Virus record (IMG/VR): IMGVR_UViG_3300020577_007794
From: a virus
Taxonomy: Duplodnaviria > Caudoviricetes
DNA: 64,000 bases
Strand: one strand, 5' to 3'
This document shows, one piece after another, positions 3,932 through 59,771 of the stretch. Numbering within the stretch: the stretch's first letter is position 1; the number at the start of each line of letters is the position of its first letter. The position numbers were made by a program, and so were the translations under genes. Below the pieces are notes generated by a model, which worked only from the letters and a program-made list of their open reading frames with translations, was not told where the DNA came from and searched no databases.

Positions 3932-4024
3932 ATGTTAAATCTAACTGGAATTAAGGCTGGAATCACCAATAATCCGTTTACCGGGTTTATTGGTGGCCCT
4001 GCCACACCAACAGGTGGGTCTTAA
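3932..4024 (+). CDS. 30-aa peptide MLNLTGIKAGITNNPFTGFIGGPATPTGGS
   Basis: Lies between a CTCTATT motif with AGGA and a downstream terminator; below the ORF-track size cutoff. Confidence 0.45.
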   Translation: MLNLTGIKAGITNNPFTGFIGGPATPTGGS

Positions 4025-4361
4025 GTACCAGGAGTTTTCTTTCATTTTGTTTTCCGCAAGAACCCTGGTCAAAAGCCGGGGTTTTTTTTGTTCTAAATCC
4101 TGCGCAACATCTTTAAATAATAGGAGGTACAAGACAGGGGAAAGTCATCCTAATTTTGCCGATATGGAGTATAGAACAAAAGCATTGACTTTTTATAAGC
4201 CAAAATGCGAAATCTGTGGATACTCTACAATTGAATGCCTCCAGATTCAACATATTAATGGAAACAGAAAAGATAATAGACTAGAAAATCTAGTAGTACT
4301 TTGCCCTACCCACCATGTTGAGGTACATAAAGGTATAATTAAAGTTAGAGAAAATATATAA
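3990..4361 (+). pseudogene. HNH endonuclease, probably N-terminally decayed
   Basis: FCSKSC, CEICG, QHINGNRKDNRLENLVVLCPTHH; no good start codon, and a terminator overlaps its 5' part. Confidence 0.7.
4061..4090 (+). terminator. Rho-independent terminator
   Basis: ACCCTGGT-CAAAA-GCCGGGGT hairpin followed by a T tract. Confidence 0.6.
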
Positions 4362-4722: not shown

Positions 4723-5508
4723 GTGGTCTTTAAGTTCTACATTCAATCTTCTATAAATATAGAAGCTCATGATCAAATTTTTGAGGCATGTGAAGAATTA
4801 GGTTTTGATTTTGAATCTGTGCCTATTATTCCATTCAGTGATAAGCTGCCTGATGACATAGATTTTTCTAAACCAGGAATGCCATATGGATCAACTACAT
4901 TTGTAAGATTGTCAGGCGAACATCCCAGTCTTCAAAAGTACACTTATCAATCTAAAGAGAAACTAAATCCACAGACTTACTTTGAAAAACTCGGAGAGCT
5001 GTATCTTAATGAACCTATATATGTAGGCTCAATAAGAGACATACCTGATTTCGATGAAGTTTTTATGAAATGTAACTCTGATGGAAAGGATATTACTGGT
5101 CGGGTGTACACGTTAAGTGAAATTCAGGAACTTAGAAGAATCACGACAACTCATTATGAAGCTGGAAACATAGTGTCACCTGATTTAGAGGTCTTCTGTT
5201 CTACTACAAAAGATTTAGCTTTCGAAACGAGAAACATTTTTATTGGTGGTGAGTGGGTAGATGGTTCTTATTATAGAAAGAAAGGAAGAACATGTCGAGA
5301 TAGAATGACTTCCGAGGATCAGGATATCATTGATTTTGCGAAGAAATGCATATCAACGTATGAACCTTTTGATATGAATGTAGTGGACATAGGTCTTTCT
5401 TATGATGGGCTAAAATGTATTGAGTATAATTGTTTTAATGCTAGTGGGTGGTATGCTTGTGATCACAAGTTAATAATTCAGAAAGCAAAAGAGTGGTGTT
5501 TAAAGTAA
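4723..5508 (+). CDS. ATP-grasp domain protein (DUF4343/R2K-like)
   Basis: PYGS, VFMK, ETRNIF..GEWVDGSYY and VVDIG....KCIEYNCFNASGWY motifs. Confidence 0.85.
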   Translation: MVFKFYIQSSINIEAHDQIFEACEELGFDFESVPIIPFSDKLPDDIDFSKPGMPYGSTTFVRLSGEHPSLQKYTYQSKEKLNPQTYFEKLGELYLNEPIYVGSIRDIPDFDEVFMKCNSDGKDITGRVYTLSEIQELRRITTTHYEAGNIVSPDLEVFCSTTKDLAFETRNIFIGGEWVDGSYYRKKGRTCRDRMTSEDQDIIDFAKKCISTYEPFDMNVVDIGLSYDGLKCIEYNCFNASGWYACDHKLIIQKAKEWCLK

Positions 5509-7826: not shown

Positions 7827-8108
7827 ATGGCACAACCAGATACATTTAAGGAAACTTTATCCTCTCTGCGCTCGCAGATGACGGATAATTATAAAAACGC
7901 TAAGCCTAAAAGGTTTGCAGGACTTCTTCAACTTCATGGAGAAATTCAAGTTAATCTAGCCTCTGGAGTAACACACTCTGTACACATGGGAGACAGAGGT
8001 TTGCTAACAGAAGACGAATTGATTTATGAAGACAGATCAGGGCAGTTAATCTGTCTCTTTTGGGATCAAGTTGAATCCGTTTGGTTCCACATTGGCTATA
8101 TAGACTAA
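7827..8108 (+). CDS. hypothetical protein
   Basis: AAGGTG RBS and upstream CTCTATTT motif; 93 aa. Confidence 0.7.
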   Translation: MAQPDTFKETLSSLRSQMTDNYKNAKPKRFAGLLQLHGEIQVNLASGVTHSVHMGDRGLLTEDELIYEDRSGQLICLFWDQVESVWFHIGYID

Positions 8109-8128
8109 GAAGAAATCAAAAAGTCTTA

Positions 8129-11100
8129 TTAAAGATAGCCCTCTTTTTTTCTCCTACTATTAGCTAGTCCATACCCCGCTAGTCCCAAACCACCAACAAT
8201 TGGGATTGCGGGGTTTATTTTTCCAGTTTTAACAGCATGTTCAGCCGCAGCTTGGCCACTATTCATAACAGCACCTACCGCTGATTTAGGGGCATTCATA
8301 CCCGTAGAAGCTTGCTCAACCGCTGTCTCAGCCAAAGCTGCAGCTTTACCAGTTGCTTCAGCCATTATTCTTCTTGAGGAAGCCATAAAACTGGCATGGG
8401 TCATCGTCTGGTTAGAGTGTCCTATAACTTGTGATGCACCTTTTTGCAATTGCTGCGCCACTGTAGCAACCGCAATTTGCAGACCAGCTCCCACAACTCC
8501 CTGACCTACGTCTGAAGAGGCTAATGTTTCAGCTATGTGAGACATCTGCCCCATTACTTTAAGGGCTGAGTTTGATCTCAGGAATGTGTTTACTTCCTTA
8601 GTTGCGTACTTGTCAGCATGAACTGCTGAAACAGCTATATCGTCCATGTATGCGTGGAACATATTAACTGCATTATGTTCACCACCAAAGGAGATAGTGG
8701 CACCATAACGGGCTTTCTCCAGAGCATCAGCGTACACATTCTCCAATCCTTCAACAGATTCTCGAGCGATAACTCTCCAATCCCCACCAGACTGCTCAAA
8801 GATTTCTGGGTATTGAGTAGGATCCAGTCTTCCAGATCTAACAGCAGTTTCGAGGACAGCTCCGTAAGTCTGTCCCACGGATTCCCTAGACCTAACTTGG
8901 TTCATGCTTACAAAGATATCAATAGGTCTTCCTGTAGGGTCAACACCAAAATCACCGTGGACAACAGAGACAGCTTTGTTACCCCATAGTGAATCAAGTT
9001 TCAGGGTTTGTGATGTATGGAAATTCTTTCCCTCTTCAGTAAGAACGTATCTTACTTTGTCGCCATTCTCAACCCGTTCGTACATCCTGTCAAAAAGGGA
9101 ACTATAGCTGTCTGCAGAGGCTGCTCTTTGCTCACCCTCTGTTAGGAAGCTATCTGGCGATGCTTCGAACCCAGACATCATATTTTTTACAAAGCTTTCC
9201 CGGCCTGTAGTAAAATACTCTTCCTCTGTTAAGTTGGGGCCTATTTTGTTGGCTGACATTACCTTTTCTAGAAGTTTATCTCTAAAAGATTCAGAAACAA
9301 GAATAAGGCCTTCATCCGCTCTTTTAGTTCCAACGTCTGCTGTTAGATCATACATGCTGAAGAGGGGGTGAGCTACTTGGCTGTCCCCGAAAGCTACGTT
9401 CAGCTCTCCAAGCATAATACCGCCACCACCTATCTGTTTAGATATGTTGGCAGCTCTTGATGCAGATTTAGCAGATATAACTCCGATACCTTGATTCAAC
9501 CCTATAGGAGCAAATGACCCGGCGGCGGCACCTAGCCTAAACTGCATGACCCTGTTATTCATGGAGCTTGTTGACTTCATGTGGATGCCACCCACCTCTT
9601 CTGCGTAGTTGGCCGCTGTATCAGCCATCATTTCCAGATTAGGGTCAGTAACTCTTAAATCAACACCAACAGTTGTAGCGGCCCGCATCATGTCAGCCTC
9701 CCCAATATCAACTATGTTTCCGTCTATTATTCTCACAGGATTCATGGTTTTGAAACCATGGGCTTCTAAAATCTTATCGGTTTGCTGTTTAATAGCTGAA
9801 AAGGCACTTTGATTGTGCATCAAGTTGAACCTTTTTATAATTTCCATGTGCTGGGCTGATTCGTGACCACCCGCTAATATCTCTCTCCCCAATGCAGAGG
9901 CGTCAACCTCATTGGTCAGACCGTATGCACTCATTAACTGCTCCCTGAATACCTGGGATTTACCATTATGTCCGTTTATTAGGGCGTTTCCGATACTTGT
10001 GTGGGAGTAAAAACCTGTTGTTGACATGAAGGAGCGCATACTATTAGTAGAAGATTCTTCTAATAGCTGTTCAATATGCTCTATAGGATTTCTAAACTTA
10101 ATTCTGTTCCCCTCTTCTCTGATACCCATATTGCCTATTAATGGTATCTCAAATACGTTGTCAGCTCCAAATGGGTGGTCAATAACACCATCTAACCCAC
10201 GGAACATCAGTCCATGAACTTCGTTAGTATATCCTGTACCTAAAAGATCTTGTCTTGCGTATTTTGAAGGGATGTTGATTGATTCTAGGTCAACAACACC
10301 AGCTTTCATCAATCTTTTTAGAATTGTGTTGGCTGGGTCATATTCAATTTGTTCTACAGCTTTGGTTTTCTTATTAAGAACAGCCTCAGCTAGTGTTCTG
10401 GTTCTTTTTTGGAAGTCATCAATGGAGGCTGCACCAAACACGTCTCTCATGGTGTTTTCAGTGCTTCCACCTATACTTGTCAAAGTGTTTAGTAAATCAA
10501 GGGAGTCAGCATGACTCATATTAGATATGCTGTTTGTTTTGAAGAGTAGTTGGTTGTGCTTCAACATCATGTTGAAGGTGTCTAAAATACCTCTATCCTG
10601 TATGTTGCCTTGACCACCTCTCAAGGCTTTCATTCGAATTTCAACGTCGAAAAGTCTGTTTGGGTTGGACGCATCAACCATTTTTTTAGCAACAGCGTCA
10701 GTTTGGAGGAGGAGCTCTAGGGATTGATTATAAGATCCGTTTCTATCTACGATATCTCCCATTGCTGATTCGTAGAAATCGAAGAATTTTTTGTGGGTAG
10801 CCCTTTTTTTTCCAGAATTTTTAGCGTTTTCTAGCTGCTCAGCTGCCATTTTTTGGGTTAAAAGAAGCCTTTCCTGGAACTTTGCTGGGTCGTTAGTTTT
10901 CAGGTCATTGACCTCAATAGCAGCAGCATACATAGCCTGTAAGTCATGCAGGTTTGTAATGATACCGGTAAGCGGGTCTTGAAGTTCTTTTGTGGCTATA
11001 TCTCTTACAGCCTCTACATTAGAGAGTTTTGACCCCCTTAACCTATAAAGGTCTCCAAGAACACTAAATTGACCAGCAGCCTCTTCTGAGGAGAAGATTC

Positions 11101-11947
11101 GTGTCCCCAACTTGCCAGGTGCCACTTCCCTGAAATTATGGGGATCCAACTTCCTTCCAATATCTATACTGGATATATTAAAGAGATCCTTCTTATTGAA
11201 ATCACCTACCCCAGGAGCTGTCTGTAGACTTCTAAATCTGAACATTGCCTGTGTAATAGGTTCTTTTAGAGATATTAACTCCTCTCTTACAATCTTGCCG
11301 TCAGCCGCACGTTGACGCATAATTAGTACGTTGGCTTCGTCAGCGTCCATGTCTGTTACAATACTGCCACCCATAACATCGTTTATATACAGAATGTTAT
11401 GTGTGCCTTCCTTGCCACGTTCTAAATGATAATACCCAGTAAGATCAGTATCAACCTGTTTAATAACACCTTTCTTTGCGTCGAAGTTAGTGAAGGGAGA
11501 TCTTGCATTCTTGGCTCTATCCCCTCCAGCTGCCTGATCCAACAGATACTGTGTATGTCTGTCTATAGCCTTTTGATCAAGAGGGATGTTTGAAGAGGTT
11601 ACGAATCTAACTCGCATACTCTCAAATTCATTAAAACCTAGTCTCCTAAATGTATCTTCGGCAGCGGAAACAGGGTCAATTCTCTTATTTTCAGCAGCAA
11701 GAATGAATCCCTGCTTAAGAATGGTATGTTGGTGCCTTCTAAGGTAAAGTTCCCAGGCTCTTGGATCTCTGTTTCCCTTAGCAGCAGCTTCTACAAGTTT
11801 TCTAAATTCTGTGACATGAACTTGTTCTTGCTGACCAATACTTATATATGGGAGCTTAACCTTAGACAGCCCACTGTTTGTAAAAACCGTGCCGCTAAGG
11901 AAAGATTTTTTCCCAGCTATATTCTCATTAGAAAAGTCAAGATCCAT
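8129..11947 (-). CDS. single-chain two-barrel (DPBB) RNA polymerase with beta'-then-beta domain order, probably virion-associated
   Basis: beta'-like GKKSFLSG, LRRHQH and TDMDADEANV; beta-like GELNVAFG, DEGLILVSE, KLDSLWGNKAV and GRPIDIFVSMNQVRSRESVGQ. Confidence 0.8.
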   Translation of the reverse strand: MDLDFSNENIAGKKSFLSGTVFTNSGLSKVKLPYISIGQQEQVHVTEFRKLVEAAAKGNRDPRAWELYLRRHQHTILKQGFILAAENKRIDPVSAAEDTFRRLGFNEFESMRVRFVTSSNIPLDQKAIDRHTQYLLDQAAGGDRAKNARSPFTNFDAKKGVIKQVDTDLTGYYHLERGKEGTHNILYINDVMGGSIVTDMDADEANVLIMRQRAADGKIVREELISLKEPITQAMFRFRSLQTAPGVGDFNKKDLFNISSIDIGRKLDPHNFREVAPGKLGTRIFSSEEAAGQFSVLGDLYRLRGSKLSNVEAVRDIATKELQDPLTGIITNLHDLQAMYAAAIEVNDLKTNDPAKFQERLLLTQKMAAEQLENAKNSGKKRATHKKFFDFYESAMGDIVDRNGSYNQSLELLLQTDAVAKKMVDASNPNRLFDVEIRMKALRGGQGNIQDRGILDTFNMMLKHNQLLFKTNSISNMSHADSLDLLNTLTSIGGSTENTMRDVFGAASIDDFQKRTRTLAEAVLNKKTKAVEQIEYDPANTILKRLMKAGVVDLESINIPSKYARQDLLGTGYTNEVHGLMFRGLDGVIDHPFGADNVFEIPLIGNMGIREEGNRIKFRNPIEHIEQLLEESSTNSMRSFMSTTGFYSHTSIGNALINGHNGKSQVFREQLMSAYGLTNEVDASALGREILAGGHESAQHMEIIKRFNLMHNQSAFSAIKQQTDKILEAHGFKTMNPVRIIDGNIVDIGEADMMRAATTVGVDLRVTDPNLEMMADTAANYAEEVGGIHMKSTSSMNNRVMQFRLGAAAGSFAPIGLNQGIGVISAKSASRAANISKQIGGGGIMLGELNVAFGDSQVAHPLFSMYDLTADVGTKRADEGLILVSESFRDKLLEKVMSANKIGPNLTEEEYFTTGRESFVKNMMSGFEASPDSFLTEGEQRAASADSYSSLFDRMYERVENGDKVRYVLTEEGKNFHTSQTLKLDSLWGNKAVSVVHGDFGVDPTGRPIDIFVSMNQVRSRESVGQTYGAVLETAVRSGRLDPTQYPEIFEQSGGDWRVIARESVEGLENVYADALEKARYGATISFGGEHNAVNMFHAYMDDIAVSAVHADKYATKEVNTFLRSNSALKVMGQMSHIAETLASSDVGQGVVGAGLQIAVATVAQQLQKGASQVIGHSNQTMTHASFMASSRRIMAEATGKAAALAETAVEQASTGMNAPKSAVGAVMNSGQAAAEHAVKTGKINPAIPIVGGLGLAGYGLANSRRKKEGYL

Positions 11948-11976
11948 GTTTCAAAGAAACCTCTAACAAATAGTGC

Positions 11977-12009
11977 CTCTATTTGCGTAGAGACTATCTA
12001 AAAATAGAG
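11977..12009. promoter_or_regulatory. divergent pair of CTCTATTT motifs (candidate phage promoters)
   Basis: CTCTATTT at 11977-11984 (+) and 12002-12009 (-), between two divergent genes. Confidence 0.5.
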
Positions 12010-12018
12010 GAGGCTGTT

Positions 12019-12108
12019 ATGGGAAAAGGCAAAGGAAAGGCAACCAAGGGCAAGGGTCAAAAACCTGCCCCGCAACCAGCAACACAACCAAAGAAAAAGA
12101 AGAAATAG
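12019..12108 (+). CDS. 29-aa Lys-rich peptide
   Basis: GAGGAGG RBS; MGKGKGKATKGKGQKPAPQPATQPKKKKK. Confidence 0.65.
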   Translation: MGKGKGKATKGKGQKPAPQPATQPKKKKK

Positions 12109-12114
12109 TTAGTT

Positions 12115-12525
12115 ATGGATATTACCTATCTACCGGTTCCTTATAGTCAAGTAGAAGCTCTTACTGGAAATAAGTATTCAATACTTATTGCCAATGAGGA
12201 TTCTGTTCTCTTCGACTCTTCTGTGCTAACACTTGTAAAAGCTGTTGTCTACGATGACGTGTATTACGATCAGGAAGATGAACTTGATCCCCAAAAACAG
12301 ATGTTCAGTTTTAATATGGACATTAGGTATATACGGGAAACAAGGCTGCAAGATGTAGTGAAAGGAGAGTGGGAGATGTCTTGTGGACCAGCGGATATAG
12401 AAGAATTCCTAAAGCATTACGAAGATGTTAATCCCTACTCCATAGTCAAGGTTTTGGCCTTGCAACCAGTTAGTTATGACCTCAGAGCACTCAGAAAATC
12501 CTTTAGAGAGATACGAAACAAATAA
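12115..12525 (+). CDS. hypothetical protein
   Basis: 136-aa ORF. Confidence 0.65.
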   Translation: MDITYLPVPYSQVEALTGNKYSILIANEDSVLFDSSVLTLVKAVVYDDVYYDQEDELDPQKQMFSFNMDIRYIRETRLQDVVKGEWEMSCGPADIEEFLKHYEDVNPYSIVKVLALQPVSYDLRALRKSFREIRNK

Positions 12526-14685: not shown

Positions 14686-17600
14686 ATGGATATTTTCGAC
14701 CCAACAGCACTACCGCCAGATCTTAGAAGAAAGCTTCAGAAAGCAAAAGAAGATCCCAGGTTTTTTACAGAAAACTTTTTAACGGACCCAAATTCCGATA
14801 AGGGGGAAAAACTTTTCCAAGCAAATACCCCTCAAAAAGAAATATTTGCGTCTAAAAAGTTAAGTACCTGGATCTGTGTTCACCGTCGAGCTGGTAAAGA
14901 GCTCCCGCACTACGAAGTAGTTTACACGCCCAGTGGCCCCGTAAAAGTTGGTGAGTTAAACGTCGGGGATAGAGTCTGTATTCCTTCTGGAGGAACTGCA
15001 GAGATAATTGATATCACAGAACCAAATCTTTCTGAAGTTTGGCGGCTTACCTTATCAGACAATACCCACATTGACTGCAACAAAGAGCACGAATGGTTTG
15101 TATTTCTCCCAGAAAGATCTGAAAGTGTTACAGTAACCACAAAACAACTCTCAGAGATTCTGAAAGAGACCCCTGCCCGAATTTACAACGTAAAACCTGC
15201 TTTTGGTGATGAGCGTGATCTAAAAATTGATCCCTATAAATTCGCTTTCACAGCTAAAGGGTTCATTCCCCAGGATTACTTATACAGTTCAGTCAATCAA
15301 AGAGCACTTCTCTTGAAGGGGTTCGTGGATGCCCAGTCCGCCAAGGTTGTTGATGACAGACTTAACCTTAAATTTCACTGTAGCAGATTATCCTGGTCAG
15401 TAGCAGAATTGGCTAGAACTCTGGGTGCTGTGGTGTTTGTAAAGGGTGGGGATTTGGAAATAATTCTTCCAAAAGATCTTCCAGGATTTTCAGGGGTTGG
15501 TAAAAAAGTACTTTTTAGGGATGTTGTATCCGTAGAAAGGACTAGAAACGAAACAGTAATGAGCTGTATTACTGTTGACCACAAAGATCACCTTTTTATT
15601 ACAAGCGGGCATACACCAACACACAACTGCCTAACTTACGATAACTATGTTCTAAATCCAGAAACTCTGCGGCCTATTAGAATAAACGAAGCGGAGAACT
15701 TTGAAAAAACCTTAGCTTTTGACTTTGATACCAATAAAGTTGAGGAAACTGAGTGTTCGTGGAACTTTAATGGGGTTAAGACCTGTGTCAAACTGTATTT
15801 GGGGACAGGTGTCGCAATAGGTTTATCTACAGATCACGAAATTTTTGAGCATAAAAAGGGTTGGATCCCTGCTGGGGAACTAAAAATAGGCGATAAAATT
15901 CTAGCCCCGTCAAAAATGCCTTGTGGTGTAGAGGAGGCAGGGGAAGGAAGCTGCAGCCTGTTTGCAAAGATAACAATGCAGGATGACCGAGTACCTGACG
16001 AAGTTTTCAAGTTGAATGAGAAATCTCTCAGCCTCTACCTTAAAGAATTATTTGGGGTGTTTGGGAAGGTTCTTTCTAGGCGGTGTGAGTACAGACTTCT
16101 CAAAAAATCATTAGCTTTTGACGTTCAACATCTTCTTCTAAGGCTCGGTATTGAATCCAGGGTTGATAAGTGCGGTATTCTCAACATAGAGAATTCAATA
16201 GATACTAATACCTTCCTAGTTAAAGTACTTAACTTAGATGTTCCACTCCTAGATGTAAGATCTTCAAGGCGTTGGGAAATCGTAGTGGATATCCAGAATT
16301 TGGGTAGCAGGAAGGTTTTTGACCTCTCTGTCTTCCACCCAGACTTTAACTTTATCAGCAACAACACAGTTGTTCATAATTCCTACTCCTTTACTGCATT
16401 GGCTTTATGGTACGCAGTAACCCAAGAAAATAAGCAAATTATCATCTTTTTCCCTGGTACTAAGCAGGAAAAAGAATTCTTTGACATTATTGACAAGTGG
16501 ATTAACGTAAATGAACTGCTTCAGGCTTTCAAGTCTCCCACAGGCAACACAAAAGATCCTCAACAACGATCCTTCATAACAGGCACCACAATAACTGGGC
16601 AGATCCTATCCGGTACAACTATCCGAGGTTTGACGGCAGATATTGTTTTTGTTGACGAGGCTCAGGAGCTTGATGAGGATGATTGGAGACAGGTTGACCC
16701 TATTATTCTTGGTGACTTTACCAGAAGAGGGAAGGTCAAAGCTTGGATTGCTGGCACCCTTTACGCCCCAGAAGGAAAGTATTACGAAACAATTAGAGAC
16801 TTCAAGAATTCTGGTAAGAAGCCACCTAATTCTGATGTTATTTTCCTTCCAATAACACAAAACGCAGACTACCTTCCTGAAGACATTGAGGAAATGCAAG
16901 CTAAGGTAACTCCAGGAAGCTGGAGAACTGAATACCTTCTTGAAGTTGGTGATGCGGATACCTCAGTTTTCTCGGTAGATACACTTAACGATGCTTTCTT
17001 CCAGGACTACGAACCTGGACCCCATATGATTAGGGAGAATTGTGTAAGGTTTCTCACTATTGACTGGGATAAGTATCAGTGTGGAACCAACATACTAATC
17101 ACACAATACGACCCTAATTCCAAGACCCTTGAACTTCTTCATCATGAAGAGGTAAAAGACCCAATATTTACATATATCACAGCTGTAAACCGCGCTGTAG
17201 CACTATGGCAGGAATTTAGATGCAGACTTCTGATAGCTGATAAGGGTGCTGGTGAAGGACAGCTTGAAATGTTGATGGAAGCTGGGATGAAAAATCCTGG
17301 AATTGAACTTCTAGAAAACATAGTTCCAGTCTCTTACAGACAGAATGTAGAACTGCAAGACCCCAATTCCGAAGAGGTTTTGAAGGAGAACATAAAGTCC
17401 TTCCTGGTGGGTAGATTAAAACTTAAATTACAGAGAAATCAAGTTAGAATCCCGCACCACAAGAAAGAGATATATGACCAATTTCTCGGGTTTAAGGTTG
17501 TTAAACAGACGGATAACACTGTAACATATAGCAAAAAGAACGAACACATTGTTGACTGTTTCTTGTTCGCTGTGTACGGTGTTCACCTTATGTACGAAGA

Positions 17601-17772
17601 TGAGTTCTTGGATTACCATGATGCTTCGATGAGTGGTGAAATAATGACCTATTCTCACCAACCTGCTCTTCACAGAGGTTTCGAGGTGATAGAGGATGAT
17701 GATGGTAATGTTATGTCCTCTTTCCCCCTTAGAAGCAATATAAATGTACCCTATAGAAGGAGTCTGTTTTAA
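14686..17772 (+). CDS. terL: terminase large subunit with two tandem inteins
   Basis: Walker A HRRAGK/S split by the inteins, IRGLTADIVFVDEAQ (Walker B), LTIDWD and EHIVDC (RNase H-type nuclease); spliced product about 534 aa. Confidence 0.93.
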   Translation: MDIFDPTALPPDLRRKLQKAKEDPRFFTENFLTDPNSDKGEKLFQANTPQKEIFASKKLSTWICVHRRAGKELPHYEVVYTPSGPVKVGELNVGDRVCIPSGGTAEIIDITEPNLSEVWRLTLSDNTHIDCNKEHEWFVFLPERSESVTVTTKQLSEILKETPARIYNVKPAFGDERDLKIDPYKFAFTAKGFIPQDYLYSSVNQRALLLKGFVDAQSAKVVDDRLNLKFHCSRLSWSVAELARTLGAVVFVKGGDLEIILPKDLPGFSGVGKKVLFRDVVSVERTRNETVMSCITVDHKDHLFITSGHTPTHNCLTYDNYVLNPETLRPIRINEAENFEKTLAFDFDTNKVEETECSWNFNGVKTCVKLYLGTGVAIGLSTDHEIFEHKKGWIPAGELKIGDKILAPSKMPCGVEEAGEGSCSLFAKITMQDDRVPDEVFKLNEKSLSLYLKELFGVFGKVLSRRCEYRLLKKSLAFDVQHLLLRLGIESRVDKCGILNIENSIDTNTFLVKVLNLDVPLLDVRSSRRWEIVVDIQNLGSRKVFDLSVFHPDFNFISNNTVVHNSYSFTALALWYAVTQENKQIIIFFPGTKQEKEFFDIIDKWINVNELLQAFKSPTGNTKDPQQRSFITGTTITGQILSGTTIRGLTADIVFVDEAQELDEDDWRQVDPIILGDFTRRGKVKAWIAGTLYAPEGKYYETIRDFKNSGKKPPNSDVIFLPITQNADYLPEDIEEMQAKVTPGSWRTEYLLEVGDADTSVFSVDTLNDAFFQDYEPGPHMIRENCVRFLTIDWDKYQCGTNILITQYDPNSKTLELLHHEEVKDPIFTYITAVNRAVALWQEFRCRLLIADKGAGEGQLEMLMEAGMKNPGIELLENIVPVSYRQNVELQDPNSEEVLKENIKSFLVGRLKLKLQRNQVRIPHHKKEIYDQFLGFKVVKQTDNTVTYSKKNEHIVDCFLFAVYGVHLMYEDEFLDYHDASMSGEIMTYSHQPALHRGFEVIEDDDGNVMSSFPLRSNINVPYRRSLF
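14899..15627 (+). mobile_element. class 3 intein (243 aa, Glu at position 1) with degenerate LAGLIDADG domain
   Basis: ELPHYEVVYTPSG start, block B HEW, block F SCITV, THN end (WCT triplet). Confidence 0.88.
15628..16380 (+). mobile_element. class 1 intein (251 aa) with degenerate LAGLIDADG domain
   Basis: CLTYDN start, STDHEIF block B, VFDLSV block F, VVHN/S end. Confidence 0.92.
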
Positions 17773-51800: not shown

Positions 51801-54800
51801 ATGCTGTCAGCCTCACTCTCAAATCTTATCAAATCAACAACCAACACTGTTAAGGGTCAGTTGGTTAATATAGGTAGATCAGGTACTAAAGTTGTCTTTG
51901 AAATAAAGACTGCTGATAGTAAGATTTATAAGGTATCAGCAACAAGCAGTCAAGCTGCCATAATTGTTAAGACACTTAATCTGTCTCAAAATATCGTGGC
52001 CGCAGCTTTGGGGCCTGGAATAAGTGATGAACTAAGAAGCAACCTTATCTCTGATAAAATTTTTGTTGAGATTCCAGTAGAGAAGTCAATATCAGGCTCT
52101 GAAGCTTCTGTGTTGTCTGGTGGAGAAAGAAAGTCTAGTAGAATAGAAAATCCCACTACAACCAAAGGAAAGGCTGAAGATGAGAAGAAAGAAAAGGAAG
52201 ACTTAACTACAGTCTATCCTACAGATAATTGGCCTGGATTGATGGAAGAATCGAGGTTTTTACCTGTTAAAGTTCCAGGCATACTGGGAACCTCCAACAC
52301 AAGAATAGGTCATGCTGTATTCTCAGCACCAATTCAGTTCTTTACATCTCAAAGAACCAGCTATATAGAGCAGAGCCCCACTCTTAGAGAATCTGGGTCC
52401 ATTAAGAAAGGTACGGGATTAGCCTTTCAAACGTATACCATTAACTATTTTGCTACAGATGCTGAGGAAGTAAGAACCTCTGTAAAGGAGGTTTTTGATC
52501 AACTATTGTTACTGCCGTTTATATCGTGCCAAGGTGGTCCATTTGGGTTTACCCCAGGGGATGGGGACATCCCGTACCACGATTTTGCAGTGAGATCTTA
52601 CTCACTTGCTACTGTGCCTGGGCACCCATCAGTCTTGAATGTGCAGATTTCTCTAGAACCACTGCTATTCGATATTTACTGCCAGGTCAAAGACTGCAAA
52701 GAGAGCCAGTCTGGTTATCAAGTAACCATGGATGACATTGTTTGCTGGCCTCTGGTTAAACTTTGGACAGGTTCTAACGAAAAGTCAACCTATAACCCAA
52801 TTCTAACAACGCTCAACGGCTCACTTAGAATGTCTCTCCCATCTAAAAAGGTTATTAACAGAATTGTAGATGAGGCTGATAAGTTTAAATCAACCTTATT
52901 AAACACAGAGGTTGATACACTAGAGACATTAAAAATTCTCATAACAGAACCTAGAGGTGCTGCTATTTCTTCTAACAATGCTAAATTGGTAGAGTCGGAA
53001 GTACTGGCTGGTTCTGGCAGAAAGATCGCTGTAGTTAAATTTGAAGACCAATTTAACTATTCTAGTCTCCAGCAAAACAGTCAATTTTTAGGACTAGTTA
53101 GATGGGAAAAGTTTTCAGGAAACCGATTCTCCAGTAACGGAACATTCCTTCCACAAAGTGGTACCGTTAATCTTGACAGATCAAGCAGCTTTGTAACAAA
53201 TCAAGTTGGGATAACTAACTATAAAACACGAGGGTCTAACGAGTTTAGTTGGATTGACGTTGTGGCCAGTAAGGGAGACATTTCAACCCTAATTGATCAG
53301 TTCTTGAAAGATGAACAAAAACAAAGAGCTGAACCAACTAGTCAGTTAGGGACGCTGCCCTCAATCAACCCACTAACTGATGACATGATTACCCATATCA
53401 AGAACAACCCATGGGAATACTTTGCACTAGTTCTCGATGTTAAGGTAGAAAATGAATCATCGCTATTAAGATCAATTAATCAGCTTTTGAATCAAGCTAA
53501 AACAAAAGCCACTATTCCGTCTATGTCAGAGAGAAAGAACTTTGATAGGATTTTAGCGGAAGAAGATTTAGTAGATTCTGAAGTCTTTATGGATACAGGG
53601 ATAGGGAATACTGACCTAATAATTGAATCCATAATGTCCACTAGGACTAATAATCTTTCTACACAACATGTTCAGGGATGTCATATACCTAAGCATCAAT
53701 TCTTAGGCGGTGGTACTGCAGAGTTTTCTATAAAAGGAAAATGTCTGTCAAAGACTGCCAAAGAAAGATTAGAGGCACTAAAACTGGAATTTGATAGGAG
53801 ATGTCATCTAACTTTTTCTGGCCCCTCCGCAGGTTCTATAAAGAATAATCCAGATAGCACACCATTTGTACGAGTGGTAAATGAAGTATTCCAACTCATG
53901 GGTGTTGACTTTGTTATGCCTGTATCATTGCGGGTTGACTCTATCCCAGAACAACCTAATGTGTGGGAATTCGAAATGGCACTCCTTGAGTTCAATCCTA
54001 AGACTCAGGCATCTGAAAGAGTTAAATTCTTAGAAACAACTCTTCAAACACAGGCAGCAGTTCTAAATTACCAAGCCCCAGGAGATCTAACCCCAGACCC
54101 TCTCATACAAAAGGCTCAGGAATATTTCTCTTTAGAAGATTCTTTGAAGAGTCTTGAGATACTGCCTGACATGGGTCTCCCTACTAAAACTATTCTTGAT
54201 AAGTGGATAGATATTATTAGAGAAGAGGCTATTTACAGGAAGATCAATAAAGTACCTAGACCTAAATCAACACTCTCAGCCACTGAAGCTGAGGTAGTTG
54301 ACCACCTAGAACACTTCTTCCAAAATAATGACTGCCTTACTATAATGTCCCACTTTAAGGAGAGGGATACTACTAAAAGAACTTCTTACACTGGATCATT
54401 TGTAGACCCGGATTTCTACTTCTTCTATGACCCTAATAAAACTTGGGGAGCATTGCTCGATAAGTTGGCTATGCAGGAATTTGGAAGAAGGCTTCCTGGT
54501 TTCTCCTCCGATAAGGTAGAGGAAAATGGTTTAGAAGCGTTCTATCAAGAATTCTCTCCACTCTTCGGCACCACAACCATGTTCTCTTCAGACTACCTTT
54601 CATCTAGGGCGTCTACCACTGAAGATGAATTGATAAGTGCTGCTAAGAACTCATACCCACCATCTCTAGCAAAACAAGCACATGATGCCACAATGTCTCA
54701 GGTTGAGGGTGCTAAATTTGAACAGTATCCGGGAGCATGGTGGACAACACCAACCAATGTCTCACCTGTTGATGAAACAAAGACATTTGAAGACAGCAAC

Positions 54801-57800
54801 CCAGAATACTTAAAGGGTCCTTACATTAATCCTAATGTTAAGGTATCTGCCTTTGACAGTAATGCTGCTAACACAGGGGTTACCCCAGCTGAGTTTGACG
54901 GAAGTTTAGAAGAGTTTCTTTCTATCGCATGGAGACGAAAACGAGCTGAAGTTAACACTTCATATGCCTTAAAGGATTCTAATATTAGACTTAATGGTGG
55001 CAGTGGTATAGGGTTTGCTTCTAAAGACGGTATTAGTTTCTACAAGAGTTTAATAAACTCAGGCTTCCTCTTTACTGCACAACCTGTGTCAACCTACTCT
55101 GCTATTGGGGGAAGTGTTGGAGACTTTGGAAAGTATAACTATCTTGCTGACAATCTTCCCATGGATGCCAGCTATATCTCTGCACGATTAAACGGAGTCC
55201 TTCCAGTAGGTGGTAAATCCCTAAAAGAGATAGAAGAGGAATCAAAGATAGCCCTCCTTCAGACAGGACATGACGACCTGGTTTCTGAATGGGGATATAT
55301 TCCACGATCAATCCATGCTACAAGAAAATACGCAATCCGATATGGTGGTACAGAGATTGTGGCAACACCATTGGCGGCTTTGGGTGCCACCACTACTGAA
55401 GCTTTGGTTAACACCCAGGATATGTTTAACTCCATTGCTGGTAAATACAGAATTGATCCAAATATTGCTAGAGCTTTCTTCCTAAGAAGAACTGGATTTG
55501 GCACTATAAAGAACGAAACTGTTGACAGCAACGGTGTGGGTTTTGGTGACCTGTCGGTGGATATAGCTTCTAAATTATCAAATGCAGAACAAGTAGAATT
55601 ATTCTGTGAGAAATTTAGAAGAAACTTAGACAGACTTAACAACGTTCCAACACTAGCCTTAGCTGCTACAGTAGCTCAGCTTACATATAAAGGAAGAGCA
55701 CTGTATGTTACTGGTACAGATGGTATAGGTACATCAGAGCCAGGTGGTTCGTCTGATAAGTTTAGACTTAACAAACAGACTTTCTACAACGTCTTGAAAG
55801 AGGCAGCTAGCAAGCTTAATAGTCCAGAAACCAAGTTCTCTATTAAAGGTGCTGAAATCATAACTAATGCTTTGGCCAAGACTGCTTTAGCGTCAGATAT
55901 TGATACGTATTGGACAGCATATATTGAGGTCTGCAGAGTCTTAGGATCAGTGAGACTTCCTGGACAATATCTAAGTAAGGTGGATGCCTACTTCGATCCC
56001 TTCAACGCATTGATTCTTACTGACAGTGAAACTAACACTGAATATGCAAACACCTCCCTTACTCCTTCAGGAAATAAGATAAGGGTATCAATGTCCAGAG
56101 GAGAAGTAACACAAACTACAGCTGACATACAAGTATTGGGTGACCCTAATAATCCTGTCTCAGCTGAGCAGGATGCAGAACTCAGGGTAAGGTTAAAGTT
56201 CGGTCTTGAACCTCATTCAGAAGCTTCTGCATGGGGCTCCATGTTTGACTGTAGACGGTATTCTGTGTTTGGTAGGTTTGTCCAAGCCTATCCGTCATTC
56301 TGTGTTCTCCTTGTAAACGAAGGTTTCTACTTTGCGGAAGGTTCTGTTAAATTGTGGGACCAATTCTACACACGAGCTGGCATCACAAATATTGAAGTAT
56401 TTAAGAGTAGGAAAGACCCTGCGCATAGCTGTTCTGTAACATACTCTAATATGTTCTACTCCATCTCTAGATACACACAAATGGAGGCATTGAGGCAGGA
56501 AATAGCTGTGGATTCTAATAATAGATTCCAGAGTACTTTTGGTCTTGGAGCAGGAACACCGCTCGAGTCTATCGAGGGCGCACTAAGACGTTTCTGGGCC
56601 GCAGCTATTTCTAAGGAACCTGACCCAAGACTCTTGAAGACTTGGGCCACGAACCATCTTAATCAACTAGCACTTACTGCTGGAGCGAGAATCCAAGTAA
56701 GAATGGGTTATGGGTCCAACGCCTCAACCCTTCCAGTAGTATTTAACGGTACAATTATTGATGCACCAATTGGTGGACAAGGAGAAGTAACTATTAAAGC
56801 AGCTGGGGATGGCTTTGAGCTTAATAACCCAGTTACTGATAGACTTGTAAAAGTTGATAATGGTTTTGCATACAGAAGTCAAGAAGGATTTTTAGGGGCT
56901 GGTACCGAACCCAGCCAAATCGTTGTTCAGAGTATGATTCCCAACTCGATGTTCGTAGCTGCTTTAACACAAGGTAGATATGGAGTAACAAGAGTTGCCC
57001 CGCACTTCGGAGAGATAATCTTCGGTGGTACGTCATACTCCATTCCTGAAGTTATGATGAATATGTATGGTGCGTCAAGAAAACACTTGTCACAGTCATT
57101 CAACTTCATCAAGAATACCTTTAACAAAAACGCACTGTACAACTGGGATGACACTACACTAATTAGTGTCTCTGTACATGAACCTACAGTTTGGAAGACT
57201 GCACAAGTCTGCGCCCAAGCTGTTATGGATTACGTCACATCACCAGAACCCTTCCATACAAGATCAACTCTCTTTTTTGGAAGGTGGTGGTACCCATTTA
57301 ACTACGCGTACTCTCCATCTATACTAGGACAAAATAATGTTTCCTCTCTTTACACAGCATCTAGATCTACTACTGCTAACAGCGTACCATCTATTGATGG
57401 CTCTACCCCACGCAATACCTCTCCTAAAGGGTTTCCTACGCAAGAAGCCAAAGGAGTCGAACTTAAGTTCGAAATCCTCCCAGACGGCCCATTTAAGGAA
57501 ACTCTCGAAAATGAGAAAAATGTAGCTACTCTTGTAGACCTTAATGTGTTTGATAAAAAGGAAGACACAGCTACAATCATTGCAGGAGTAGCTGGCCTAT
57601 TCGGACAATCCTTAGCTGCTAATCTTTTAGCAGAACTGAAGAAAAAATATCTAGGGTCCGATGAAAAAGCAAAGTGGGGCTTTGGTATATTCAATCCAAA
57701 GAATGGAGGCCCTACATATGCGCTAGTCATGACCTTAGGTGATGATGGTATTTTACGAACACAAAAACTAAAAGACTTCACGTACACCCCAAGCAGTGCT

Positions 57801-59771
57801 GGTGCTATTTTGACTACAAATGATCAAACAATAGTGGACAATGCAGACCCAACAATGTTGAGGGATGTTGAAAATTTCGTAAAACACCTTTATTGGAAAC
57901 CATATATTCAAGCATGGCCAGCAGTAACAGGACTCAACCTCCTTTCCAACAACATTGTTCCATCTCAAAAAGATGTGTACACTGATGCTAAAGGGCAACA
58001 TACGTTTAATGGTTGGATATCTAGAGATACCCCTGTAAAAACAATCACGTATTGTGTGGACAGTGATATATCACCAAGTACTCGAAGAACTATGTTGGTT
58101 GATACCGGTCTTCTTGTAACAACCGTTCAAAGAGGTTTCACAAATACAGTTGCAAAGGGTGCAGCTAATATAGCTAACTCAGTTCTAGGTTGGACTCCAT
58201 GGACTCCGGTAATTTCTGAGTTTATAAATGAAACTCCAGATACCCCTGCTATCGAAAACTCTGTTGTTAATGCTTTGTGTAATTCTGTTAAGGAAATGTA
58301 TCAAGGATGGTTTTCTATTTCTGGTCAATCAGCTATGAAACCAAACGATCTAGTTCTCCTTAACGATGCCTACAACGGTATGGAGGGGCCTGTTTTTATA
58401 GGGGATGTTATTCATAGAATGGATTCCTCTACAGGCTTTGTTACCTTAATTTCTCCAGACTGTGTAGCTCTCCCACACTCAGCAATTATCGGCCAGAGGT
58501 TGATTGTGGCGCATTCAAGTGGGCCGTTAGCTAAGGCTGGTCAGTATGTAATAGGTTCAGCTGCCTGGGCTGCTATGGCTTTTTCACTTAAAAAGCTTTC
58601 TTCAAATCCATTCTCAGCAAGGATATTGGAGTTAAAAGAGTTAACAAATAGGTACACAGTAGCTGAGGCTTTGGGTTCTAAAAATCTTACTAACACTGTA
58701 AAGACGCAAATTCTTTCTGCTATTGATGCTAGAATGGCGGCAATAGCAGAAGCAAGTAAAAAGGGATTATTCTCGTCTCTACGAATAGAACAACTTAAGA
58801 AAACAAGACAGGCAATCGAGGCCTCAGAAAATCTTTCTGCAGTCTTCCTTTATGCTAATGAGTCTGGTATAAACGTTGGACAGATTCTCAGGGATATTCC
58901 AGGTGTTAGCCTTGATTTTGAGAGATTGGTTTCTATTATCCATAATTCTCAAAATCTTTACATAGAGATGTTGAGAGAACTAAAAGCAAACCCAGCTACA
59001 TCTCAGCTATCTGAGCAGGAAATTATTAGGCTAGTAGAAAATAAGGTAGTAAAACAGCTAAATCAAACTTTGATTGATGCTGATCTAGCTGTTGCAGGAG
59101 ATTCTGCAACTGATGGGCTATCTGAAATATCTGCTCTCCTAAGAAATGAATCAAAACTGAGACCATTAATTGATCCAGGAACTATCCAAGTTACCGATGA
59201 AGTTATTGAAGAAGCCTGGGCAGCTGCTAGATTCAAAGCAGCTACATCACCTGTTAGACTTGTAAATATGTTGAAGGGGGCAGAGGTTGCGCTGTCTGAT
59301 AGTGTCAGATTGAGGCGAGCAACAAAACTTCTTTCCAAATCTATATCAGGATTGTCATTGGCTTTGTCAGCAATTGGTCCCGGAGTAATTGCTAGACTAG
59401 CATTTGAAGTGGTGAGATTTAGCATCGGTCAAACAGTTATACAAGGTATTAACTCTAGACTTATGGCTAGACAGGCTGTAAAAATATTTCCACTTAGAAG
59501 TATTCAATCCAATGGTACCTCAATTCCGTTTGTAGCTGGAATTAGAGGACATCAAGGAGCAGTAGTTGGGGACGACCCAGGCTACTTCGATAAACTTCTC
59601 AGTGGTAAATTTGAACCCAGCATCCCCTTTACAGATGGTTTGAAGCTTTCATTCATTCTGTCTGCTCTACTTGGTGTTGAGATACCTGAGTACGGTAATA
59701 CGGATGTTGACAATCTTTACATCCAAAAGATGAAAGAAGTGGAGGATAAGAGAGTAAATGGAAGAAGGTAA
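51801..59771 (+). CDS. 2656-aa baseplate hub-like structural protein with a degenerate SLT-like domain
   Basis: GARIQVRMGYG...VFNGTI and GQSAMKPNDLV...VIHRMD hub-type motifs; precedes the hydrolases and baseplate genes. Confidence 0.62.
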   Translation: MLSASLSNLIKSTTNTVKGQLVNIGRSGTKVVFEIKTADSKIYKVSATSSQAAIIVKTLNLSQNIVAAALGPGISDELRSNLISDKIFVEIPVEKSISGSEASVLSGGERKSSRIENPTTTKGKAEDEKKEKEDLTTVYPTDNWPGLMEESRFLPVKVPGILGTSNTRIGHAVFSAPIQFFTSQRTSYIEQSPTLRESGSIKKGTGLAFQTYTINYFATDAEEVRTSVKEVFDQLLLLPFISCQGGPFGFTPGDGDIPYHDFAVRSYSLATVPGHPSVLNVQISLEPLLFDIYCQVKDCKESQSGYQVTMDDIVCWPLVKLWTGSNEKSTYNPILTTLNGSLRMSLPSKKVINRIVDEADKFKSTLLNTEVDTLETLKILITEPRGAAISSNNAKLVESEVLAGSGRKIAVVKFEDQFNYSSLQQNSQFLGLVRWEKFSGNRFSSNGTFLPQSGTVNLDRSSSFVTNQVGITNYKTRGSNEFSWIDVVASKGDISTLIDQFLKDEQKQRAEPTSQLGTLPSINPLTDDMITHIKNNPWEYFALVLDVKVENESSLLRSINQLLNQAKTKATIPSMSERKNFDRILAEEDLVDSEVFMDTGIGNTDLIIESIMSTRTNNLSTQHVQGCHIPKHQFLGGGTAEFSIKGKCLSKTAKERLEALKLEFDRRCHLTFSGPSAGSIKNNPDSTPFVRVVNEVFQLMGVDFVMPVSLRVDSIPEQPNVWEFEMALLEFNPKTQASERVKFLETTLQTQAAVLNYQAPGDLTPDPLIQKAQEYFSLEDSLKSLEILPDMGLPTKTILDKWIDIIREEAIYRKINKVPRPKSTLSATEAEVVDHLEHFFQNNDCLTIMSHFKERDTTKRTSYTGSFVDPDFYFFYDPNKTWGALLDKLAMQEFGRRLPGFSSDKVEENGLEAFYQEFSPLFGTTTMFSSDYLSSRASTTEDELISAAKNSYPPSLAKQAHDATMSQVEGAKFEQYPGAWWTTPTNVSPVDETKTFEDSNPEYLKGPYINPNVKVSAFDSNAANTGVTPAEFDGSLEEFLSIAWRRKRAEVNTSYALKDSNIRLNGGSGIGFASKDGISFYKSLINSGFLFTAQPVSTYSAIGGSVGDFGKYNYLADNLPMDASYISARLNGVLPVGGKSLKEIEEESKIALLQTGHDDLVSEWGYIPRSIHATRKYAIRYGGTEIVATPLAALGATTTEALVNTQDMFNSIAGKYRIDPNIARAFFLRRTGFGTIKNETVDSNGVGFGDLSVDIASKLSNAEQVELFCEKFRRNLDRLNNVPTLALAATVAQLTYKGRALYVTGTDGIGTSEPGGSSDKFRLNKQTFYNVLKEAASKLNSPETKFSIKGAEIITNALAKTALASDIDTYWTAYIEVCRVLGSVRLPGQYLSKVDAYFDPFNALILTDSETNTEYANTSLTPSGNKIRVSMSRGEVTQTTADIQVLGDPNNPVSAEQDAELRVRLKFGLEPHSEASAWGSMFDCRRYSVFGRFVQAYPSFCVLLVNEGFYFAEGSVKLWDQFYTRAGITNIEVFKSRKDPAHSCSVTYSNMFYSISRYTQMEALRQEIAVDSNNRFQSTFGLGAGTPLESIEGALRRFWAAAISKEPDPRLLKTWATNHLNQLALTAGARIQVRMGYGSNASTLPVVFNGTIIDAPIGGQGEVTIKAAGDGFELNNPVTDRLVKVDNGFAYRSQEGFLGAGTEPSQIVVQSMIPNSMFVAALTQGRYGVTRVAPHFGEIIFGGTSYSIPEVMMNMYGASRKHLSQSFNFIKNTFNKNALYNWDDTTLISVSVHEPTVWKTAQVCAQAVMDYVTSPEPFHTRSTLFFGRWWYPFNYAYSPSILGQNNVSSLYTASRSTTANSVPSIDGSTPRNTSPKGFPTQEAKGVELKFEILPDGPFKETLENEKNVATLVDLNVFDKKEDTATIIAGVAGLFGQSLAANLLAELKKKYLGSDEKAKWGFGIFNPKNGGPTYALVMTLGDDGILRTQKLKDFTYTPSSAGAILTTNDQTIVDNADPTMLRDVENFVKHLYWKPYIQAWPAVTGLNLLSNNIVPSQKDVYTDAKGQHTFNGWISRDTPVKTITYCVDSDISPSTRRTMLVDTGLLVTTVQRGFTNTVAKGAANIANSVLGWTPWTPVISEFINETPDTPAIENSVVNALCNSVKEMYQGWFSISGQSAMKPNDLVLLNDAYNGMEGPVFIGDVIHRMDSSTGFVTLISPDCVALPHSAIIGQRLIVAHSSGPLAKAGQYVIGSAAWAAMAFSLKKLSSNPFSARILELKELTNRYTVAEALGSKNLTNTVKTQILSAIDARMAAIAEASKKGLFSSLRIEQLKKTRQAIEASENLSAVFLYANESGINVGQILRDIPGVSLDFERLVSIIHNSQNLYIEMLRELKANPATSQLSEQEIIRLVENKVVKQLNQTLIDADLAVAGDSATDGLSEISALLRNESKLRPLIDPGTIQVTDEVIEEAWAAARFKAATSPVRLVNMLKGAEVALSDSVRLRRATKLLSKSISGLSLALSAIGPGVIARLAFEVVRFSIGQTVIQGINSRLMARQAVKIFPLRSIQSNGTSIPFVAGIRGHQGAVVGDDPGYFDKLLSGKFEPSIPFTDGLKLSFILSALLGVEIPEYGNTDVDNLYIQKMKEVEDKRVNGRR

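Follow-up and report, generated by a model that had tools for sequence, protein, structure and literature searches.

The 64,000-nucleotide (nt) stretch of viral DNA analyzed here (the window; IMG/VR record IMGVR_UViG_3300020577_007794), which forms part of a 194-kb contig, carries an open reading frame (ORF) of 1272 amino acids (aa), P0001, that probably encodes the catalytic polypeptide of a one-chain phage polymerase of the two-barrel superfamily, most likely a DNA-dependent RNA polymerase, with its two catalytic modules in reversed order. This assignment is based on sequence conservation and on predicted structures. A beta'-like Asp triad (residues 199-203) is followed, in the same ORF, by a beta-like Lys pair (residues 983-991), and this order, Asp barrel before Lys barrel, is the reverse of that of every fusion or single-chain enzyme that we found described in the literature. 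P0001 and its homologues form a new, unannotated family, very probably a member of the superfamily with this reversed module order. Two-barrel polymerases perform transcription in all cells. If the assignment is correct, the active site would depend on the packing of the barrels and not on how the chain connects them, either topology being tolerated; an independent fusion event would be added to the history of these enzymes, and structural and engineering studies would gain a new compact model enzyme with a ~125-kDa core. The features of P0001 and its surroundings are listed in Table 1.

Table 1. Coordinates of P0001, its regions and motifs, and the adjacent divergent region (positions in the window)
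Feature	Position	Strand	Basis or remark
P0001 ORF, candidate single-chain two-barrel RNA polymerase	8129..11947	-	1272 aa; identical in second-study contigs; homologues 1180-1318 aa
Residues ~100-245, candidate beta'-type (Asp-triad) barrel	11213..11650	-	Low-confidence model (pLDDT 50-79) and hhalign
D199-M-D201-A-D203, putative Mg-binding triad	11339..11353	-	D199, M200, D201 and D203 invariant; DMDGDE in most homologues
Residues ~310-528, long predicted helices	10364..11020	-	Full-length model; generic coiled-coil matches only
Residues ~530-800, best-predicted alpha/beta region	9548..10360	-	pLDDT mostly 75-89 in full-length model
Residues ~805-1115, predicted to resemble the hybrid-binding/double-psi-barrel region of second-largest subunits (beta, Rpb2)	8603..9535	-	
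K875-R-A-D-E879-G880 (KR-DEG; cf. beta NFEDS)	9308..9325	-	K875, R876, E879 and G880 invariant; match to beta E813/D814 by eye
K983-LDSLWGN-K991, lysine pair	8975..9001	-	K983, G989 and K991 invariant; aligned to Escherichia coli beta K1065/K1073
Residues 1136-1272, tail rich in Ala, Gly and Gln, with a hydrophobic Gly-rich segment and basic residues at its end	8132..8542	-	
Inverted pair CAAATAGTG / CTCTATTTG in divergent intergenic region	11967..11985	.	
Divergent neighbour gene, 136 aa, no family match, first of terminase/head block	12115..12525	+	33-42% identity to the L002 and L004 neighbours

The P0001 family and its beta-like C-terminal half

Homologues of P0001 are few. An exhaustive phmmer search against 1.84 billion cluster representatives returned ten proteins including P0001 itself; the others were seven full-length homologues (1181-1318 aa, 27-32% identity) and two fragments. 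One further member is encoded as a single gene copy by the 235-kb IMG/VR phage G001, which is 95% complete. The family comprises ~10 clusters, all of them metagenomic and sharing 25-32% identity. Other searches added little: a word-indexed search returned P0001 itself and one 87% relative and nothing else, a search of IMG/VR gave one relative, and a scan of metagenome contigs gave none. P0011, which contains the beta-like half alone, was considered as a possible split form and was rejected, being truncated by the end of its contig.

An earlier note on this DNA, made from its letters alone, had proposed that P0001 is a permuted two-barrel polymerase and had quoted a series of motifs. The 1272-aa ORF and all quoted strings are present in their places, the three aspartates at the nucleotides given in Table 1, and conservation separates these motifs clearly. 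In an alignment of nine full-length family members (25-32% identity) 46 columns are invariant, and 11 of these fall in DMDxD, KRxxEG and Kx5GxK. The Asp triad, the lysine pair and the KR-DEG sequence are accordingly kept among the homologues, and a block with the pattern G-x-[IV]-D...N/Q-x-x-RSR-x-N is also highly conserved. Most of the supposed beta' motifs outside the triad were not borne out: only G19 is conserved in GKKSFLSG, at most one Arg in YLRRHQH, and QTDAVAK is not conserved. LTGIITN, put forward like QTDAVAK as a match to the bridge helix and trigger loop, has two invariant residues (G328 and N332), yet its region displays no profile similarity (P 0.72). VHADK, quoted as a beta motif, contains the invariant D1112 and is located in a low-confidence part of the model.

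Independent support from structure strongly indicates that the C-terminal half has a beta-like fold. Residues 790-1135 were modelled without templates from an 11-sequence family alignment, and this crop model reached a predicted local distance difference test score (pLDDT) of 68.8 and a predicted template modelling score (pTM) of 0.65. When the crop was compared with the PDB by Foldseek, the 50 top matches (E 1.3e-4 to 1.5e-3, probability 0.66-1.0) were without exception second-largest subunits of multisubunit RNA polymerases, covering bacterial, plastid, vaccinia, African swine fever virus and Pol IV subunits. A structure comparison among 48,161 chains likewise ranked nine subunits of this type in the nine top positions, with the next chain more than 3 Z units lower. 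Both of the clusters nearest to the crop in the ESM Atlas are viral, and in one of the two 97% of the members carry PF00562. In agreement with these results, hhalign placed K983...K991 of the crop-region profile on K1065...K1073 of E. coli beta (KMAGRHGNKGV; P 0.011, versus 0.69 for the beta' control), as the earlier note had proposed, and in the same alignment the PID...RSR block of P0001 falls on PVDIV...PSRMN of E. coli beta.

It is extremely unlikely that this resemblance is spurious, a model artefact combined with chance motifs. The crop model was derived from family sequences only, all nine leading structural matches are of a single subunit type and are set apart by the Z gap, and the structural match puts the invariant lysines where the hhalign alignment to the beta sequence does.

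The Asp triad and the N-terminal half

Three observations argue, with moderate strength, for a beta'-like N-terminal half: the invariance of the Asp triad in the family, its profile alignment to NADFDGD of beta', and the fact that DMDxD of P0001 is the sole DxD[GAI]D among window ORFs longer than 150 aa. The beta' barrel profile used for the alignment contained 19 sequences, namely E. coli, twelve phage records and six other bacteria; a contig scan with beta' queries had yielded close proteobacterial sequences alone, and the diversity of the profile comes from the phage records. Family residues 95-260 matched this profile with P 0.0033 over 27 confident columns centred on the motif. In these columns 'hn-vymNd--Ag--v-DMDGDEa' is aligned on 'tI-i--lv----NADfDGDqm', which corresponds to strand, helix, triad and strand around the catalytic loop. 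With the beta-like crop as control, the same profile gave P 0.76. The best local match of the whole 1244-column family profile to the beta' profile lies on the same columns, and none of 150 column shuffles reached the observed score (26.6, versus a shuffled mean of 11.8, sd 2.4 and maximum of 23.5). A by-eye extension of the beta' alignment over the first 100 residues (GRSVI to G19-x-V and NRAPTLH to RAKVV) did not recur in the hhalign alignment and was dropped.

In the low-confidence full-length model, residues ~100-245 form a strand, a ~45-aa helical insert, two strands, a helix, DMDAD and a strand hairpin. This order of secondary structures around the triad is compatible with a barrel, and the helix before the triad and the strand after it resemble what we take to be the arrangement in beta'. 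A complex prediction of residues 95-260, Mg and residues 790-1135 gave scores of 0.00, 0.49 and 0.00 and was used neither for nor against the proposed arrangement.

Structural proof exists for the C-terminal half alone, and the main rival explanation starts from there: P0001 would be a beta-like subunit only, with the Asp barrel coming from a separate, very divergent phage protein and DMDGD having some other role, such as a metal site or an assembly element. The polymerases of jumbo phages are indeed split into several divergent polypeptides (PMC7824862), and divergent subunits can escape Pfam. We nevertheless regard this explanation as unlikely. DMDxD is invariant and aligns to NADFDGD together with a flanking helix and strand, and no other DxD[GAI]D is present in the long ORFs of the window, which covers 64 kb of the 194-kb contig. 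In addition, no beta'-type Pfam domain was detected in the near-complete relative G001. More generally, G001 gave no match at E <= 1 to PF00562, PF00623, PF04997, PF04998, PF04560 or PF00940, models that divergent subunits can escape, and it encodes no Pfam-detectable T7-type polymerase. Because a beta-type barrel with both lysines needs a partner with an Asp triad, and the only conserved candidate is located upstream in the same chain, we favor a one-chain enzyme.

Several results weigh against P0001 being such an enzyme. No meaningful match to it was found in Pfam, PHROGs, NCBIfam, the PDB (by sequence and by profile), GenBank phages (DNA and protein) or, by features, the ESM Atlas. The profile match to beta' is weak (P ~0.003 over 27 columns). 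The full-length AlphaFold model is poor (pLDDT 58.6, pTM 0.38), and searches with it (Foldseek against the PDB and BFVD, and a wide VIA-align search) gave coiled-coil or generic matches and no polymerase. The models do not demonstrate a double-psi-barrel fold for the N-terminal element, and it is this fold that we infer. Neither a bridge helix nor a trigger loop was detected when residues 245-560 were compared by hhalign with a 9-sequence profile (P 0.72); YonO likewise lacks detectable trigger-loop homology (PMC5467207). Relative G001 encodes a 212-aa ORF (L008, G001:C1:20478-20621) that matches sigma-70 region 2 (E 1.3e-8), and host polymerase is therefore probably used for at least part of its programme; the G001 lineage probably redirects host RNA polymerase too. 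Finally, the hydrophobic C-terminal tail is unusual in a polymerase. Its hydrophobic, Gly-rich and basic end is clear in P0001, P0003 and P0010 only; P0004 has a long C-terminal extension that lacks this ending, and the remaining homologues have no tail. The tail of P0001 also gave a weak LPXTG-anchor-like match under the curated cut-off. The reversed single-chain enzyme that had been proposed is supported in part, strongly by structure for the beta half and moderately for the beta' half.

The tail present in some members, the undetected bridge helix and trigger loop, and the position of the gene, which adjoins the packaging/head block behind a motif common to virion genes, could all be accounted for if P0001 were a virion or ejection protein whose polymerase-derived domain had been exapted for a non-catalytic role in nucleic-acid binding or DNA delivery. 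This is quite unlikely. In a family of 25-32% overall identity it is precisely the residues required for catalysis (Asp triad, Lys pair and acidic loop) that do not vary, a pattern that an inactivated domain would not be expected to show. Moreover, a location in the virion is compatible with catalysis, as in crAss gp66 and P23-45 gp96.

Module order, proposed active site and origin

In described single-chain enzymes the double-psi beta-barrel DPBB-B precedes DPBB-A (PMC10770324), and known natural fusions are Rpb2::Rpb1 or beta::beta' (PMC2919709; PMC7281927). These reports agree with the previous claim that fused and single-chain enzymes put the Lys barrel before the Asp barrel, and literature searches for a permuted barrel order found none. 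P0001 resembles YonO of SPbeta, gp66 of crAss-like phage phi14:2 (6VR4), gp64/gp96 of Thermus phage P23-45, QDE-1 of Neurospora and plant RDR2 in that both catalytic elements are apparently present in one highly divergent chain, but in the YonO/QDE-1/gp66/P23-45 clade the order is Lys then Asp. Similarly, it shares the fusion of large-subunit parts into one chain with Orf6 of yeast killer plasmids (Rpb2::Rpb1), Corynebacterium NCgl1702, Salmonella phage Arash gp206 and a Vibrio phage D69 CDS, whereas all of these are arranged as beta then beta' (PMC2919709), opposite to P0001. The Arash and D69 proteins (L092 and L093; ~1525 aa) bear the annotations beta subunit or hypothetical protein. In both, the beta' catalytic barrel lies at the C-terminal end, which makes them beta-beta'N fusions of the usual order.

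The closest known counterparts of P0001 are the non-virion beta subunits of jumbo phages (phiKZ, PDB 7OGP/8QUE chain C; AR9, PDB 7S00 chain C) and cellular beta/Rpb2. P0001 differs from these in having no PF00562 match, and in its crop model a mainly helical insert of ~95 residues separates the KR-DEG strand from the lysine strand, taking the place of the flap (SBHM) insert of the cellular enzymes. Whereas beta of phiKZ and AR9 is a separate subunit, the beta-like domain of P0001 is fused behind the N-terminal part that bears the Asp triad. Thus, in contrast to the split polypeptides of these phages, both motif sets are found in one ORF, and Pfam detected no other subunits in the near-complete relative.

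In structure comparison the beta-like half appears closer to the beta subunits of multisubunit and jumbo-phage enzymes than to gp66 or to plant RDR2, an RNA-dependent RNA polymerase of the QDE-1 type. Because of this proximity, we consider it more likely that split subunit genes fused in reverse than that a YonO-like chain underwent circular permutation, the other origin that had been suggested. The likeliest course would be a fusion of split subunit genes of jumbo-phage type, beta'N then betaC.

In the proposed enzyme the N-terminal element (residues ~100-245) would supply D199, D201 and D203, which would hold the catalytic Mg2+, while K983, K991 and the acidic KR-DEG loop of the beta-like domain (residues ~805-1115) would make contact with the 3' end of the RNA and with the incoming nucleoside triphosphate. 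The two parts would pack face to face into one active site, as in beta'/beta. We infer this convergence and the self-sufficiency of the single chain, as we do the template, the product and the time of expression. Template and product are not readable from sequence, and QDE-1 is described as both DNA- and RNA-dependent (PMC9508822); P0001 could accordingly be an active two-barrel enzyme that differs in specificity and acts as an RNA-dependent RNA polymerase, a primase-like enzyme or a PolD-like DNA polymerase, which we consider very unlikely.

Gene context and a candidate promoter element

Riverine metagenomes from one study contain DNA nearly identical to the window, as do four runs from a second study. 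Positions 8000-12100 are spanned by two contigs of the second study with 0 differences over 4.1 kb, and because of this identity we conclude that the P0001 ORF is genuine and intact and not an assembly artefact. The surrounding genome is that of a large contractile-tailed phage, with an intein-bearing large terminase, a portal, a major head protein, a sheath and three giant proteins. The P0001 family marks an unannotated lineage of large freshwater myoviruses that has its own candidate promoter element.

In four phage lineages the P0001 gene stands alone on the strand opposite to its neighbours and diverges from a ~140-aa gene that opens the terminase/head block; besides the window, the same arrangement is found in L001, L002 and L004. 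The 136-aa divergent neighbour (33-42% identity) is better conserved than the polymerase-like protein itself.

The sequence C[ACT]CTATTT[GA] occurs seven times in the window, and five of these copies lie within 0-35 nt upstream of a start codon on the same strand, in a genome that is 97% coding; further positions are 7802, 32082 and 46565. Two copies form the inverted pair listed in Table 1: the minus-strand copy CACTATTTG is located 20 nt before the P0001 ATG, and an exact CTCTATTTG faces the divergent gene. The same inverted pair (AAATAGAG ... C[CA]CTATTT) is present upstream of the homologues in L001, L004 and L007, and hence in four phage lineages. This pair is a candidate phage-specific bidirectional promoter or operator. 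The P0001 gene seems to be co-regulated with virion genes because the motif is common to both. Such co-regulation would fit a packaged enzyme as well as a promoter that is read by the enzyme itself. A CTCTATTT-type element is conserved upstream of the P0001 gene and of virion genes, and we put forward, tentatively and as a possibility only, that P0001 is a minimal RNA polymerase belonging to the multisubunit lineage and self-sufficient as a single chain, with modules in reverse order, that would read this element without a sigma factor and in some lineages would be anchored or packaged via its hydrophobic tail. Directly after the exact CTCTATTTG, a ~29-aa ORF (12019-12108, plus strand) consists nearly entirely of Lys, Gly, Pro and Gln (MGKGKGKATKGKG...KKKKK).

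Other genes of the window, all on the plus strand, deserve brief mention. A 2656-aa protein (51801-59771) strongly matches an 'endolysin' PHROG (phrog_20474, E 4e-85), and after its gene come SLT-type transglycosylase and tape-measure-like genes. The giant tail-module proteins of the window showed no relation to the P0001 family. The large terminase (14686-17772) has 1028 aa; its relative L001 (3575-7105) has 1176 aa and a Pfam intein-splicing match, and the insert-free homologue L002 has 540 aa. Upstream of the polymerase-like gene lie an R2K-clade ATP-grasp protein (4723-5508; PF14243, E 4e-13) and an HNH endonuclease (3990-4361).

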